64,000 nucleotides of DNA from Paludibacter sp. (lineage in GTDB: Bacteria > Bacteroidota > Bacteroidia > Bacteroidales > Paludibacteraceae). The position numbers were made by a program, and so were the translations under genes. The notes beneath the pieces are model-generated. The model was not told the origin of the DNA. It searched no databases and was given only the letters and a program-made list of their open reading frames with translations. The stretch covers positions 29,187-93,186 of the forward strand of contig DAIDKM010000003.1 in NCBI GenBank assembly GCA_027450045.1, read 5' to 3'. Below, piece after piece: positions 5,740 to 64,000 of this stretch (positions are counted from its first letter, which is position 1; each line of letters opens with the position of its first letter).

Positions 5740-6951
5740 TTAGCGTTTATGCGGGAACAATGGTTCTCCTAAAAGTAGTTTGCGATAGCGCAATAAAGCC
5801 TCAATGTAATAGTAATCAGCATACGATAATGGAACATCTACTTCTGTATGACCAGGTAACGAACCTACGCTATGCATTAATATAAAATCGCCGTTACTTC
5901 CTAATTGTGCCCGAAATACGGGCGACGATAAAGTTCTGATTTGCATTGCTGCAACGTGTAAATATTCTTTAGATGCTTTTTTAGGAACATATTGACTTAG
6001 TTCTATAAAAGCGGAACACATAACGGCTCCTGCCGAAGCATCGCGATATGTATGAGGTATGGCAGGATCATCAAAATCCCAATATGGAATTTTGTCTTTA
6101 GGCAAATGAGGATTATTCAATATGAAAGAGGCAACTTTTTCTGCTTGATCCAAATATTTTGAATTTCCTGTTTTGCGATAACACATGGTATAAGCATACA
6201 ATGCCCATGCCTGTCCGCGAGCCCATGACGATGAATCGGAATAGCCTTGTACCGTTTTATGCGCAATGGCCCTACCTGTGATTGTGTCATACGAAACAAG
6301 GTGAAAACAACTCCCATTGGGTCTGAATTGATTTTCCAATGTCTTATTAGCATGTGAGATAGCAATTTGTTCATACCTTTTATCTCCTGATAAATGTGTT
6401 GCATTAAACATCAATTCAAGATTCATCATATTGTCAATAATCACCGGATATTCCCATTTTGTTCCATTCCAGGAGCGGATGCACCCGACAACCGGATTGA
6501 AGCGGGTGCTTAATGAATGTGCTGCATTTTCTAATACTTTTTTGTATGCTGAATTTCCGGTGATGCGATATCCATTCCCAAAACTGCAGTTGATGATGAA
6601 TCCAACATCGTGAGTGTCAGTTGTGTATTGTTGACTTGCTACTCTTTGTGTAAATGTTTCTGCGTATGATTTCAATTGATTGTCTTTTGAATATTCGTAT
6701 AAATACCAAAGTGATCCTGAGAAAAAACCACTTACCCACCAAGAAGGCGAACAAGTAACTAAGTTTCCTTGTTTATCGATGGTTTGTGGCAATCGTCCCG
6801 GATGATTGAGCATCGTTATTGCCATGAGTGAATCTTGTTTAATGGCAAAATTCAGATTGTGGTCAATTAAAGACAATAAAGATTCGGCCTGGATTTGCCC
6901 AATTGGGATATATAATAATAGCAGTAGCCCCCAAAAATATTTTCTAAGCAT
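5740..6951 (-). CDS. GH88 unsaturated glucuronyl hydrolase
   Basis: WVSGFFSGSLW, HDVGF, VIIDNMMNLE, WARGQAW, DASAGA and YADYYYIEAL motifs. Confidence 0.92.
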   Translation of the reverse strand: MLRKYFWGLLLLLYIPIGQIQAESLLSLIDHNLNFAIKQDSLMAITMLNHPGRLPQTIDKQGNLVTCSPSWWVSGFFSGSLWYLYEYSKDNQLKSYAETFTQRVASQQYTTDTHDVGFIINCSFGNGYRITGNSAYKKVLENAAHSLSTRFNPVVGCIRSWNGTKWEYPVIIDNMMNLELMFNATHLSGDKRYEQIAISHANKTLENQFRPNGSCFHLVSYDTITGRAIAHKTVQGYSDSSSWARGQAWALYAYTMCYRKTGNSKYLDQAEKVASFILNNPHLPKDKIPYWDFDDPAIPHTYRDASAGAVMCSAFIELSQYVPKKASKEYLHVAAMQIRTLSSPVFRAQLGSNGDFILMHSVGSLPGHTEVDVPLSYADYYYIEALLRYRKLLLGEPLFPHKR

Positions 6952-6978
6952 AATAAATTTAATGATTTTATAATTGTA

Positions 6979-9048
6979 TTATTGAAGTTTGAAAGCGCCT
7001 CTTAACCGAATATCACGGGATGACGCAGCCGCATTAACAGTATAAATTCCCGGTAATATTTTCCATGAATGGGATAGGCTATCCCAATAAGATAATGCAC
7101 GGGCATTAAGGGTGATGCTAACATGGACTGATTGACCCGGAGCCAGGTCTACACGTTGAAATCCTTTTAATTGTAAAGGTGGTTGCGGAATATTTGACGT
7201 TGATGGCATTCCAAGGTAAAGCTGGGCAACTTCTGCTCCCGCACGTTTCCCTGTGTTTGTTACCGTAAATCCGACTATAACTGTTTTTGCATGATCAGGT
7301 TTTGAAATTTTAAGATCTTTGTATCCGAAAGTGGTGTATGACAGTCCGAAACCAAAGGGGAACAATGGCTCGATGCGTTTTGCATCATACCAACGATATC
7401 CGACTAATAAATCTTCTGAATAATGAACGGTTCCGTTTATGCCGGGATATTGTTCAGCCGTTTGGGTAGGTAAATCCGTATCTTTTTTTGGAAAGGTGAT
7501 TGGAAGTTTCCCTGAGGGATTGACTATTCCAAATAAAACATCCGCCACAATGTTTCCGTCTTCTTCTCCGGGATACCACGCCTCAAGAATGGCTGATGCT
7601 TTGTCAATCCATGGCATAAGAATTGGACCTCCTGTTTTCAATACGACAATGGCATGAGGATTTGTACTTAATACTGCCTCTGCTAACTCATTCTGATTGC
7701 CACTGAGTGAAATGGAATGGTCCCTCCCTTCTGTTTGTCTATCTCCCAATATCAGAATTGTCACATCAGCATTTTTAACCATGGCAACGGCTTTTGCCAA
7801 ATCCATACCATCATTTATCTGAATTGCCACATTTTTCCCAACTATGGTACGAATGCCGTCATTAGGTGAAATTCTGAGTATTGGATTTACATACGAACTA
7901 CCGCCTCCACCCGTCATAGCTTGCTCAGCAAAGGGCCCAATGAGAGCAATAGAATGAATAGTTTGAGGATTAAGCGGAAGTAAGCCGCTGTTGTTTTTAA
8001 GTAACACAACACCTTCTGTGCCAAGTTTTCTTGCGATTTCGGCATCTTTTTGAACAGGAATGTTTCCTGTTGCATGTAACTTATCCCATACGCCAAAACG
8101 CATCATGGTTCTATACCTGCGAATTAGCTTATCATCTAATAACGACACCGGAATTTTGCCGGCTTCAACAGCTTGTTTGAGTGAATCACCAAAATAAATA
8201 CCTGTCGGCATTTCTAAATCAAGCCCTGCTTTGGCCGAAGGTATGGTGCTGTGAACGGCGCCAAAGTCAGAAGTTATAAAACCATTAAATTTCCATTCGT
8301 GTTTCAGCACTTGGTTCAACAAGAAATCATTTTGACAACAATAAGTCCCGTTGACTTTGTTATAAGCAGCCATTACAGAACCAACATGTCCTTCTTTGAC
8401 TGATGCTTCGAATGCCGGCAAATATATTTCACGAAGTGTTCGTTCCCCTATGATCTCATTAATTTTAAACCGATTTTGCTCTTGATTATTTGCTGCATAA
8501 TGTTTTACATTGGCAATAATTCCACAGCTTTGAATCCCTTTAATTTCAGAGACAGCTATTCGACTTGTTAAAAACGGATCTTCGCCAAAGCTTTCAAATG
8601 TCCTTCCGCCATGGGGTGTGCGTGCTATGTTTACATCTGGTGATTCTAGTAATAAATTTCCCAATAAAACCGACTCACTACCGGCAATCTTGCCATACGA
8701 ATAAGCAGCCTGAGTGTCCCACGCTGCGGCAAGCGATATGGCTGCCGGTAGAGCCGTGGCTTTTCCTTCATGTCCGGGCCCGGCAGGTCCGGCACCGACA
8801 GGTCCATTGCAAACCGTAAGTGCCGGTATTCCTAATCGGGGAATGCCAGGAACAATTCTATATGCAGTGTCATTTCTGATGCCATGTAATTGAGCAATTT
8901 TTTCATCTAATGTCATTTGTGCTACAATTGTGCGGGCTTGTGCATCAAAATCCGAATATGATTTTTGGCCTTTGTTTTCATTTATGCCTTTTAAAACTAA
9001 TGGCATGACCAGGAAAATTCCCATGAAAATACAAAAAAACTTTTTCAT
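6979..9048 (-). CDS. GH3 beta-glucosidase-like glycosidase with FnIII C-terminus
   Basis: GGRTFESFGEDP, KHYAANNQE, GFITSDFGA (nucleophile), NPSGKLPITFP, LFPFGFGLSYT and LKGFQRV. Confidence 0.92.
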   Translation of the reverse strand: MKKFFCIFMGIFLVMPLVLKGINENKGQKSYSDFDAQARTIVAQMTLDEKIAQLHGIRNDTAYRIVPGIPRLGIPALTVCNGPVGAGPAGPGHEGKATALPAAISLAAAWDTQAAYSYGKIAGSESVLLGNLLLESPDVNIARTPHGGRTFESFGEDPFLTSRIAVSEIKGIQSCGIIANVKHYAANNQEQNRFKINEIIGERTLREIYLPAFEASVKEGHVGSVMAAYNKVNGTYCCQNDFLLNQVLKHEWKFNGFITSDFGAVHSTIPSAKAGLDLEMPTGIYFGDSLKQAVEAGKIPVSLLDDKLIRRYRTMMRFGVWDKLHATGNIPVQKDAEIARKLGTEGVVLLKNNSGLLPLNPQTIHSIALIGPFAEQAMTGGGGSSYVNPILRISPNDGIRTIVGKNVAIQINDGMDLAKAVAMVKNADVTILILGDRQTEGRDHSISLSGNQNELAEAVLSTNPHAIVVLKTGGPILMPWIDKASAILEAWYPGEEDGNIVADVLFGIVNPSGKLPITFPKKDTDLPTQTAEQYPGINGTVHYSEDLLVGYRWYDAKRIEPLFPFGFGLSYTTFGYKDLKISKPDHAKTVIVGFTVTNTGKRAGAEVAQLYLGMPSTSNIPQPPLQLKGFQRVDLAPGQSVHVSITLNARALSYWDSLSHSWKILPGIYTVNAAASSRDIRLRGAFKLQ

Positions 9049-20493: not shown

Positions 20494-20512
20494 GCGAAGC
20501 TTGGTATAGGAT

Positions 20513-20567
20513 AATACCTATATAAAACCTATCTAATACGTATATGAAACCTATATAATACCTACTT
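20513..20567. repeat. 11-bp degenerate tandem array (5 units, core CCTATA)
   Basis: AATACCTATAT AAAACCTATCT AATACGTATAT GAAACCTATAT AATACCTACTT, preceded by an inverted TATAGG. Confidence 0.8.
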
Positions 20568-53909: not shown

Positions 53910-54272
53910 AAAAAATAGGTATAATAATGAGCTGCAAAGGTACAACAGAAAGTAAGATTGTCGAAAGAAATCTCAGCAATTTTCATTGAAACAAATTCAA
54001 AAGAATAAATTCTCATGGAACAAAACCTGACAATTTATAAAGTAAGAAGATGATTTTGAGTTGCTATTTGTCCTGTTTTACCATGTTGTTGAAAAGGTTG
54101 TCGGCATCCGGCTAAAATCTTGTTTTGTTGTGATGCCTTTATTTTCGGAAATAAAGATAGGAATCCAATACCTCCCAAACAATATGTACACGTCCATATA
54201 CTTACATTAAATCCCCATAGGAATCGATCAAAATCCTCTACGTTAACATGAAAACCTATAGGATTTCCGCTA

Positions 54273-54393
54273 TTTGTTTAGGCCTTCTATAGGATTTCTA
54301 TAGGAATTGTATAGGGTATGTATAGGGTTTATGTAGGACAGCTATAGACCAACCATACTCCAGCCATACTCTACCAATAGACCAGCTGTTGGA
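54273..54393. repeat. 11-bp degenerate tandem array (about 11 units, core TATAGG)
   Basis: TTTGTTTAGGC CTTCTATAGGA TTTCTATAGGA ATTGTATAGGG TATGTATAGGG TTTATGTAGGA CAGCTATAGAC CAACCATACTC CAGCCATACTC TACCAATAGAC CAGCTGTTGGA; palindromic CCTATAGG at 54255-54262. Confidence 0.8.
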
Positions 54394-63079: not shown

Positions 63080-63727
63080 TTAAAATTTCAAGCCAGCTCT
63101 GACTGATAATGATCCAGCCGTCCCATGAACATCTTTCGTAGTTTGATAATCATGATATTGTGCATTTTGCATATTGTATCCAGCCATAAAGAATAATACC
63201 GTTTTCTTAGTCAGATAAATATCCATCCCGAAAGAAGGCTCGGCCATAAATCCATACATATTTCTTAAATCACCTTGCCCGATATCAAAAGCATAGCCGA
63301 TATTCCCTGCCACAAATGGAGAAACAAGTCCTTTCGACAAAGTTATTTTTACTTGTAAGAATAATGGCAACAAAATATTACCTCCATAATTATCAAAATC
63401 ATGTGACGTTACATCATAGTACATTGATGATTCATTAGGAAAATAAACAGGAGAATAGTTATATAGTCTCATTTTGTTACATAAAGCGTTGGCATACCTG
63501 GCTCCAATCCCAACTCCTGCAAAAATGTATTGATTAAGTCTGACGCCATTTATCATATCAATTTCATAGGAGCTCTTGGTGAATTCATCTAACCCGATAA
63601 ATACTCCGGCCTCAAAAGACTTTTCATAACTAACCTGAGCTTTTATATAAGAACAACTTATCATTATCGAAAAATAGTTGCTATAAAGCGCCAGGATTCT
63701 TTTAATCGCGTCCCTCTGGTTTTGCAT
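63080..63727 (-). CDS. Outer-membrane beta-barrel-like hypothetical protein (start uncertain)
   Basis: Alternating beta-strand pattern (FAGVGIG, LPLFLQ, PFVAGNIGY, FFMAGYN) and C-terminal VRAGLKF. Confidence 0.65.
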   Translation of the reverse strand: MQNQRDAIKRILALYSNYFSIMISCSYIKAQVSYEKSFEAGVFIGLDEFTKSSYEIDMINGVRLNQYIFAGVGIGARYANALCNKMRLYNYSPVYFPNESSMYYDVTSHDFDNYGGNILLPLFLQVKITLSKGLVSPFVAGNIGYAFDIGQGDLRNMYGFMAEPSFGMDIYLTKKTVLFFMAGYNMQNAQYHDYQTTKDVHGTAGSLSVRAGLKF

Positions 63728-63739
63728 CGGGCGATGCGA

Positions 63740-63854
63740 TTATATCGAACGATTCGACAGCCTAATGTCGGATGCCCCGACAGCCTAATATCGAACGATT
63801 CAACAGCCTAATGTCGGATGACCCGATAGCCTAATATCGGATTGCCCTATATTT
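63740..63854. repeat. 23-bp tandem array of mini-palindromes, A-B-A-B-C order
   Basis: TTATATCGAACGATTCGACAGCC / TAATGTCGGATGCCCCGACAGCC / TAATATCGAACGATTCAACAGCC / TAATGTCGGATGACCCGATAGCC / TAATATCGGATTGCCCTATATTT. Confidence 0.9.
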
Positions 63855-64000
63855 ATGCCGTTACATTCAGTACATAATCGAAGGTATAAGAACGAGGCTC
63901 TTTCAACAAGTGTGACGTTGATGAATACTGAGTTGTAATGGTCAGTTTGTAATCGCCGGAGGCCAAACCTGCCGGTACCACGAAGGTGATTTTGGAGGGA
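63853..64000 (-). CDS. C-terminus of a DUF4469-like (Ig-fold) protein; 5' part lies beyond the right edge
   Basis: Manual translation PSKITFVVPAGLASGDYKLTITTQYSSTSHLLKEPRSYTFDYVLNVTA*; the PS.L...P...G.Y.L...TQY....LLKEPR pattern recalls DUF4469. Confidence 0.7.
   Translation of the reverse strand, partial: PSKITFVVPAGLASGDYKLTITTQYSSTSHLLKEPRSYTFDYVLNVTA

Follow-up and report, generated by a model that had tools for sequence, protein, structure and literature searches.

The stretch of DNA analysed here (the window) comprises 64,000 nt of contig DAIDKM010000003.1 (positions 29,187 to 93,186) from Paludibacter sp. assembly GCA_027450045.1. Its right-hand end carries, on the minus strand, the 3′ end of an HU-like/DUF4469 gene, a tandem array of short palindromic units that begins at the stop codon of this gene, and an open reading frame (ORF) that includes the gene of a putative outer-membrane protein (Table 1). 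The array, at 63742-63856, consists of five 23-nt units abutting head to tail, each of which is composed, on the coding strand, of a TAGGCT linker, a 15-nt palindrome and AT, with the consensus TAGGCTRTCG-N7-CGAYAT. The stems are of two alternating types, called A (GTCGAA-TCG-TTCGAT) and B (GTCGGG-GCA-TCCGAC). Tandem Repeats Finder detected both the single period of 23 (3.8 copies, 76% matches, 63755-63842) and a period of 46 (2.1 copies, 94% matches, 63742-63839), and a separate repeat search placed four copies in exact 23-nt register. The motif TAGGCTGTCG, allowing at most one mismatch, was found five times in the window, four of them within the array (chance expectation 1.5), and the window holds a single array of these units. 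Rfam covariance models gave two chance-level matches in the window (E = 1.9 and 6.9), both outside the array, and a CRISPR array was rejected because the units abut without spacers.

The TAA of the partial ORF (63853-63855) lies inside unit 1, which is the most decayed unit (14 of 23 positions identical to unit 2, counted by eye) and whose position is occupied by a well-formed unit in two related loci, L031 and L032. Units 2-5 follow, and 14 nt separate the last of them from the ATG of the downstream ORF. Direct inspection of the sequence revealed a further degenerate unit or hairpin beyond unit 5, with this ATG in its 3′ half; with less certainty, it may correspond to the last unit of L031 and L032, TAGCGT-ATCGCACGATGCGAT-AT. 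An initial annotation of this DNA had described the flanks TAATRTCG and CGAYAGCC on the plus strand, the A-B-A-B-C order, the stems TCGAA/TTCGA and TGTCGG/CCGACA, the 46-bp higher-order period, the start of the array at the stop codon and the uneven decay of its units. Our analyses agree with all of these, whereas the gap to the ATG had been given as 12 bp.

Table 1. Coordinates and sequences of features in the window and at related loci (window positions unless a locus is named).
Feature	Location	Strand	Sequence or remark
3′ end (48 codons + TAA) of HU-DNA_bdg + DUF4469 gene	63853..64000	-	...PSKITFVVPAGLASGDYKLTITTQYSSTSHLLKEPRSYTFDYVLNVTA*; runs off the window end
Unit 1, decayed	63834..63856	-	aTAAAT-ATAGGGCAATCCGAT-AT; 23-nt register with units 2-5
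Unit 2, type B	63811..63833	-	TAGGCT-ATCGGGTCATCCGAC-AT
Unit 3, type A with U-G wobble	63788..63810	-	TAGGCT-GTTGAATCGTTCGAT-AT
Unit 4, type B	63765..63787	-	TAGGCT-GTCGGGGCATCCGAC-AT
Unit 5, type A	63742..63764	-	TAGGCT-GTCGAATCGTTCGAT-AT
Degenerate terminal unit or hairpin	63719..63741	-	..AATCGCATCGCCCGATGCAAAA, stem GCATCG/CGATGC
Downstream ORF, 215 aa here	63080..63727	-	short non-conserved ORF fused to 205-aa putative outer-membrane protein gene
Single remaining copy of 10-bp direct repeat TAATGATAAG	63657..63666	-	205-bp deletion junction relative to L002
CCTATA/TATAGG arrays	20511-20564; 54272-54338		in the intervals hybrid two-component sensor gene/ruvB (one array) and panB/gcvH (the other)
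Orthologue array	L037		TAGGCT-ATAGGATCATCCTAT alternating with TACCAT-ATAGTGCGGTGCTAT
Orthologue array	L038		TAGGCT-GATAGACCTTCTATC
Orthologue array	L040		GAGGCT-GTGGAGACCTTCCAT alternating with CCGGCT-ATGGAGGTGTCTCAT
Orthologue array	L041		TAAGCT-GTGACACTGTCTCAC
Orthologue array	L042		TAGGCA-GTGGAGAGTCTCC
Orthologue array	L043		degenerate remnant: two weak units and one inverted copy
Orthologue array	L044		TAGGCT-GCGGGTTTGTCTCGC
Remnant-adjoining arrays	L004, L005, L008, L011, L014, L018, L020, L030; also L015, L021/L035, L024, L031
Tannerella-type arrays	L006 (oriented 1598-1643); L009 3264-3332; L013; L029		GTCG..CGAC unit, then ACCGG..CCGGT units
Direct repeats upstream of HU-DUF4469 start	L022 752-815; L037 5794-5860; L042 2857-2915; L063 1375-1425
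Other-period repeats past the array	L012 2314-2361, 2426-2545 (also L017, L019, L023, L027, L028); L025 3500-3623

The partial ORF ends in ...YTFDYVLNVTA-TAA. It had initially been identified as DUF4469-like, with an HU-like domain expected further to the right, and both proposals were borne out. The DUF4469 Ig-like domain, PF14734, matched with E = 8e-15 (68-aa C-terminal version, L002), and a metagenome contig with the whole gene at the same locus (L022) encodes 246 aa matching PF14734 (E = 1.2e-29) and, beyond the window end, the N-terminal modified HU domain PF14848 (E = 5.4e-24). PF18291 reached 22.5 bits in L022, just below its cut-off of 26.2, and exceeded the cut-off in L025. The L022 protein aligned over its full length with PDB 4FMR (phmmer E = 3.3e-29, residues 14-237 against 11-234). 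By its domains and its Bacteroidota lineage, namely a modified HU N-terminus joined to a DUF4469 Ig C-terminus, the gene is assigned to the Ig-fused subclade of the HU-HIG clade defined by Burroughs et al. (2017; PMC5499826), of which 4FMR is a structure. These authors described up to about 22 copies per genome, lineage-specific expansion, rapid divergence and almost no conserved gene-neighbourhood links, made no mention of downstream repeats, and argued, with 4FMR as the basis, that the DNA cleft is filled by the Ig domain and that such versions may bind RNA or protein (PMC5499826). While the clade diverges rapidly in general, the orthologous group of the window gene is well conserved (244-250 aa, 67-99% identity; Microbacter at 92%, Paludibacter, Gaoshiqia and Mangrovibacterium). 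It also lacks the glycine-rich acidic tail in which the Bacteroides and Parabacteroides paralogues end (..GGGGDSESPDEI, ..SENPLG). A tblastn search for non-Ig paralogues with the HU domain alone returned the query itself as sole match. The organism of the window occurs in mine-drainage and landfill metagenomes.

Upstream of the HU-DUF4469 gene we observed an AraC-type regulator gene in L037, L038, L040 and L063 and a response regulator gene in L042. Roughly 50-175 nt before the HU-DUF4469 start lie direct repeats, two or three of them at distances of about 21 bp (e.g., CTGATTCGTCAAAA), which look like ordinary operator sites for the adjoining regulator. The order AraC, repeats, HU/DUF4469, array recurs.

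To examine conservation, seven orthologues were fetched by protein identity alone (69-92%), blind to repeats, from hosts including Microbacter, Gaoshiqia and Mangrovibacterium, and in all seven a 23-nt array or its remnant follows the stop codon. The ATTAGGCT-like linker, an 8-nt (A)UUAGGCU in RNA form, is largely kept, with variants in L040, L042 and L037, but the rest of the 3′ flanks cannot be aligned by eye and the stems have been swapped for other complementary sequences. Stems of the L037 type also occur at the window locus in metagenome contigs from the same sites. Unit number differs even between near-identical loci, with five units in the window and seven in L002 (+46 bp), and with a difference of 23 bp between L012 and L017; it also differs between L013 and L029 and between L025 and L036, as had been anticipated initially for different strains. 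Higher-order periods of 46 nt are common. Where the next gene is convergent (L040, L044, L059) the array is nevertheless kept, which ties it to the HU gene rather than to a promoter further on, and in L010, L038 and L042 a terminator follows the array. In an independent approach, a scan of 185,579 species genomes with the exact linker/stem pattern returned six loci, at most two per genome, and a repeat pattern scan of metagenomes returned 27 loci. At many of the non-identical loci the array comes directly after a DUF4469 ORF ending ...LKEPR..F(D/E)Y(V/L)LNV, in constant orientation, including a divergent gene at 65% identity with GACGG/CCGTC stems.

The linkage extends well beyond the orthologous group, a point that the initial annotation had put forward for checking in homologues. 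In a blind sample of 19 family members (the seven orthologues and 12 distant paralogues), 22-24-nt arrays following the stop codon were clear in 15, borderline in two and absent in two. Ten of the 12 distant paralogues carry an array. Three Bacteroides/Phocaeicola-type paralogues, reached via the 4FMR sequence, all have 22-23-nt tandem repeats after the stop, and a tblastn search of PLSDB yielded seven paralogues at 24-38% identity, one in Fulvitalea and six in a single Parabacteroides distasonis genome. Each of these six is followed, 0-40 nt past the stop, by a period-23 array (period 24 in one case), and most of the arrays hold hairpins (e.g., TTTAGGG/CCCTAAA, GGTAA/TTACC, CATGA/TCATG); the Fulvitalea array is weak and located past a terminator. 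The repeat sequence differs between paralogues, but position, period and usually the hairpin are kept. As a control set for comparison we used the 239 ORFs that reach 150 aa or more in the 366 kb that these loci cover. The other control 3′ flanks with period 21-25 repeats belonged to genes convergent on the same arrays, AraC-type genes upstream and two Tannerella-type loci, and among about 195 unrelated ORFs none had such a 3′ array. Arrays of 22-24 nt therefore follow most HU-DUF4469 genes and essentially no other genes.

Arrays were also observed apart from an intact gene. Those beside decayed or truncated remnants of DUF4469 3′ ends (e.g., ..TATGTACTGAATGTATCGGC..) are conserved across several Paludibacter lineages, and arrays of the Paludibacter type open with one inverted unit, which creates a 14-16-bp palindrome around AGCCTAAT. 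The leader of L004-type arrays, ...TATGTACTGAATGTATCGGC, resembles the ...TATGTACTGAATGTAACGGC of the window at the DNA level; tblastn found no gene remnants beside these arrays at E < 1e-3. In Tannerella-like genomes, TAGGCT-type 23-nt arrays in sense orientation follow unrelated genes, with copy numbers that vary by sample (six units in L029, two to three clear units in L013), which indicates that the element can exist apart from the HU gene.

We next consider transcription. The orthologue L012 is present in wetland metatranscriptomes, where contigs of seven runs cover the gene and, in five of the seven, enter or cross its array. A single contig of run X29 extends from position 1500 through the entire array (1896-2034). 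Contigs of three runs end at 2080, 2083 and 2083, at a T-run about 50 nt past the array, and depth is zero over 2142-2500 in X23-X26 and, in X27-X30, over the stretch between 2092 and about 2424. The L012 transcript thus passes through the array and ends beyond it, placing the array inside the 3′ untranslated region (UTR) of L012 and supporting, as far as transcription is concerned, the structured 3′ RNA offered as an option in the initial annotation. The units were rejected as intrinsic terminators, since they are followed by AUUAGGCU and the L012 transcripts pass through them. L010 was absent from the wetland RNA runs, and at the gene-less remnant array L011 RNA contigs were found on the flanks, with none spanning.

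Stem covariation, which the initial annotation had proposed, was assessed in 92 distinct units picked by their linker only, using a 7-pair model; these units are related by descent. The proportion of paired cells was 79.3%, compared with 65.6% in column shuffles (none of 500 shuffles was as high), and 22-40% of cells paired when the partner was slid. Both sides had changed in 112 cells where 49 were expected, and six of the seven pairs showed compensatory types (e.g., pair 9-19: CG 54, GC 15, UA 4, AU 2), so that the units keep a 6-7-bp stem with a roughly 3-nt loop through compensatory changes. At the inner pairs of the sense strand, G-U outnumbers A-C mismatches by 64 to 30. Different palindromes also coexist within one array, as with GTCGA/TCGAC beside ACCGG/CCGGT (L006, L009, L029), GACGG with ACCGG (L025) and ATAGG with ATAGTGC (L037), which fits selection on structure better than recognition by one sequence-specific dimer. 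Most arrays fold markedly below shuffled sequence (z -2.3 to -9.5).

On this evidence we favor, with a probability of about 0.45, the reading that the array is a gene-linked structured 3′ UTR which probably serves the encoded protein as a multivalent platform for binding. The array would be a minisatellite forming the 3′ UTR of the HU-like/DUF4469 mRNA, and its RNA would present a row of stem-loops with single-stranded linker motifs between them. This row could act in cis as a barrier against 3′-to-5′ decay, in the manner of repetitive extragenic palindromes (REPs), and could also serve as a multivalent platform, most simply for the HU-like protein encoded just upstream, giving rise to autogenous control or to a cognate ribonucleoprotein. 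Between strains, unit number changes in steps of 23 or 46 nt. Each paralogue would have its private repeat sequence, and replication slippage would set the copy number and thereby how strongly the array acts. The encoded protein is inferred to be the partner of the array from the family-wide linkage together with the structural argument of Burroughs et al. (PMC5499826). The module put forward in the initial annotation, a binding protein with its iterated sites or a structured 3′ RNA, is a fair description of this linkage. A broader and more tentative proposal, which we consider doubtful, is that each Bacteroidota HU-DUF4469 protein is paired with a private 22-24-nt array at the end of its own gene, bound as RNA or structured DNA. 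If true, the lineage-specific expansion of the family would be an expansion of cognate protein/nucleic-acid address pairs, and these would form an unrecognised class of self-addressed ribonucleoproteins or local regulatory modules, many of them ahead of surface-protein operons.

Several observations weigh against a role as structured RNA. Binding by the encoded protein is deduced from linkage; the L012 contigs are unstranded; the organism of the window was found in DNA metagenomes only, with none in the metatranscriptomes of the same study; and the sense strand of the L002 locus showed no terminator-like site. L070 and L071, on faecal 'phage' scaffolds of unverified status, show only single hairpins in place of an array. 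Folding energies are similar for sense and antisense strands. At the outermost pair, 7-21, A-C (24) exceeds G-U (15) among 135 units, which indicates that this pair is not under pairing selection, and two arrays of period 22 (L059, L061) have z about 0 and no hairpin potential, so that periodic presentation of a motif, rather than the hairpin, may be the common denominator. Finally, both halves would likewise change together in a palindromic double-stranded DNA (dsDNA) operator that co-evolves with a dimeric protein, and units A and B of the window have their outer GTCG...CGAC half-sites in common.

The last of these points lead to the alternative that survives best, which is that the units are dsDNA dyad sites for dimers of the adjoining HU-like protein, forming a private operator, nucleation or centromere-like locus that co-evolves with each paralogue. 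Double changes of half-sites would mimic covariation, the A-C:G-U ratio at pair 7-21 carries no RNA signature, and a 22-24-bp period kept even without a hairpin would suit the spacing of bound proteins. A palindrome array placed directly after the gene of a protein with a DNA-binding fold, a different repeat in each paralogue, and arrays that outlast decayed gene remnants (L004, L005, L015, L021) all fit such sites. However, unrelated palindromes occur together in single arrays, 23 bp is a non-integral number of helical turns, the Ig domain occupies the DNA cleft in 4FMR (PMC5499826), the array lies within a transcript, inner pairs show the sense-strand G-U excess, and neither a ParA-like partner nor a plasmid context was seen at the loci. 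Weighing the mixed palindromes, the inner G-U excess, the retention beside convergent genes, the terminators located past some arrays and the transcription against the similar strand energies and hairpin-less periods, we keep the structured 3′ UTR as the preferred reading and regard dsDNA sites as unlikely.

Alternatively, the array may be a leader or intercistronic element that modulates read-through, processing or promoter activity into the next gene, with the HU-like protein as a local regulator. Large surface or outer-membrane genes were often seen next on the same strand (L058, L061, L065, L042, L063, L066). These include genes of SusC/TonB receptors (L058, L061), a fimbrillin (L065) and a protease with a type IX secretion system tail (L042), which, like the putative outer-membrane protein of the window, are the neighbors that such an element would call for, and in P. 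distasonis the next start codon comes only 40-60 nt past the array. The Treponema denticola gene TDE_2259, of the same architecture, is co-regulated with the adjoining bspA, which is all that was noted of it (PMC12724145), and BrickBuilt repeats show promoter activity (PMC4596501). Retention of the array beside convergent neighbors (L040, L044, L059) and ahead of strong terminators (L010, L038, L042), as well as the end of the L012 transcript about 50 nt past the array, without read-through, make this explanation improbable.

We consider it quite improbable, too, that the array is a functionless minisatellite or selfish repeat akin to the miniature inverted-repeat transposable elements, of the BrickBuilt kind, that was seeded by a hairpin at the gene end, is kept up by slippage and concerted evolution and simply passes down with the gene. 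Unstable copy number, decay of gene-proximal units, TAGGCT-type arrays after unrelated genes in Tannerella-like genomes (L006, L009, L013, L029) and the existence of a 23-nt minisatellite in Porphyromonas gingivalis are what this would predict. Yet the array and, largely, its linker persist in orthologues whose non-coding flank is otherwise unalignable by eye, the association reaches paralogues at 24-38% identity as against about 0 of 195 other 3′ flanks, and the pattern occurs at no more than two loci per genome in the 185,579 species genomes. Terminal inverted repeats and leader or tail sequences were not seen. Nor did we find a viral or plasmid context for the array, and an origin from phage or plasmid was rejected since 13 viral-contig matches to three consecutive TAGGCT-N17 proved to be unrelated 23-mers, leaving none in viral contigs.

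The Sma/Cla repeat in Neisseria pilin loci is a homology block for gene conversion. A parallel role of the 3′ array, as an anchor with which the DUF4469-coding 3′ end would undergo gene conversion or cassette exchange, might account for truncated 3′ gene fragments adjoining arrays (L024, L031, L015, L021, the L004 group) and for the lineage-specific expansion and rapid divergence of the family (PMC5499826), but is very improbable given that the fragments resemble decayed pseudogenes with deletions, unrecognisable at the protein level, that the orthologous group is conserved and not hypervariable, and that paralogue arrays cannot pair because they have no common sequence.

The apparent fusion of the array to the ATG of the downstream gene is due to a 205-bp deletion. 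The repeat TAATGATAAG occurs twice in L002, at 441 and 646, and once in the window, and the deleted segment held the native start (MKKPLYIIVLIM...) of the 205-aa outer-membrane-like gene together with the region upstream. The short, non-conserved ORF MQNQRDAIKRILALYSNYFS, which starts 14 nt past the array, is consequently fused in frame to this gene in the window, so that the ATG initially taken as the start of a beta-barrel gene is not native. A proB look-up gave neighboring contigs of the locus. L001 crosses the junction as the window does, the undeleted form is present in contigs of runs X1, X3 and X4 (loose ends at 63657/63667), and it makes up most contigs in four metagenomes; the deletion is a strain-specific allele of the window and L001. 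Pfam and NCBIfam scans assigned the downstream protein to no family, and a single-sequence AlphaFold model was too poor for use (pLDDT 27.7). This gene comes after the array in the Microbacter lineage alone (L002, L037) and is therefore not part of the conserved module. The earlier suggestion that the barrel gene might travel in a mobile or phase-variable cassette was likewise not upheld, as other orthologues have unrelated, sometimes convergent neighbors and no viral or plasmid context was seen.

Other repeats were noted in passing. The window has two intergenic arrays of an 11-bp-phased CCTATA/TATAGG motif, with about five copies each. Tandem repeats of other periods (21, 29-30 and 43 bp) occur a few hundred bases past the 23-nt array at several loci, and the 29-bp repeat region of L012 is present in metatranscriptome contigs of runs X27 and X29 at a depth of about 10-57. 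In the 1.5-kb gap past the Gaoshiqia array (L038, about 6950-8230) a long repeat of roughly 450 bp, with many GC hairpins (e.g., GCGGTTTCCGGACCGCG), occurs about three times, and similar short hairpin motifs follow the degenerate array of L043.

HU-HIG/DUF4469 proteins are among the most expanded Bacteroidota-specific families and have one solved structure. With a non-coding element after the stop codon in 15-17 of 19 blind-sampled genes, in hosts that range from Microbacter to Parabacteroides and Phocaeicola, the family gains a first conserved partner, and the question of its ligand becomes testable at the bench, by offering each protein its own array as RNA, single-stranded DNA or dsDNA. The array is also a natural multi-hairpin 3′ UTR with tunable copy number. 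Bacteroidota are not known to have Hfq or ProQ, and how they control expression post-transcriptionally is poorly mapped. In practical terms, short-read assemblies break at such arrays, in which several of the present contigs end, and the arrays would be useful as strain markers.

Among known systems, REPs and bacterial interspersed mosaic elements (BIMEs) are short imperfect palindromes in 3′ untranslated or intercistronic regions that are transcribed with the upstream gene, as is the array. REP elements stabilise upstream mRNA, and where they lie no more than about 15 nt from a stop codon they influence the termination of translation. Work by Newbury in 1987 and by Liang and Qian in 2015 is said to have dealt with REP/BIME elements, including REP325/naRNA4, an RNA that reportedly acts with HU. 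Whereas REP/BIME elements number hundreds per genome, follow many unrelated genes, often alternate in orientation and are associated with RAYT transposases, the window-type array occurs at no more than two loci per genome, is strictly direct and spacer-less with a 23-nt unit, is tied to one protein family and has a paralogue-private sequence; no RAYT (IS200/IS605-like) transposase was seen in the fetched flanks. On the F plasmid, sopC follows sopB and consists of 43-bp tandem units, each with an inverted repeat. The array resembles such a centromere in having inverted-repeat tandem units of private sequence directly after the gene of a predicted nucleic-acid-binding protein, but it is chromosomal, varies its stems within one array and is transcribed as a 3′ UTR, and its binding is putative. 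A ParA/SopA ATPase partner was not seen at the fetched loci, where the upstream neighbors are AraC-type regulators or unrelated genes.

BrickBuilt, in P. gingivalis, is likewise a spacer-less 23-nt tandem repeat of Bacteroidales that is intergenic and strain-variable in unit number (PMC4596501). Its consensus, AGAYCATARTATCCTCTCRTRTG, is however unrelated to the unit of the window, and it includes a leader and a tail that bear IS5-like terminal inverted repeats and is dispersed in 19 copies (PMC4596501), the neighbors of which are not HU-DUF4469 genes; here leader and tail are absent, and array flanks across lineages have only the 3′ end of the gene in common. We therefore rejected identity with BrickBuilt on sequence, flanks and neighbors. 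The FopS/GibS small RNA families of Bacteroides, which have a single-stranded 5′ end and a terminator, were also rejected as relatives, and in the searchable literature we found no description of repeats linked to DUF4469/HU-HIG genes. In its proposed mode of action the array is most like REP/BIME clusters of 3′ UTRs; it resembles BrickBuilt in form and sopC in placement, and departs from the defining features of each; it is an instance of a binding-protein gene with an adjoining, cognate-looking repeat array.

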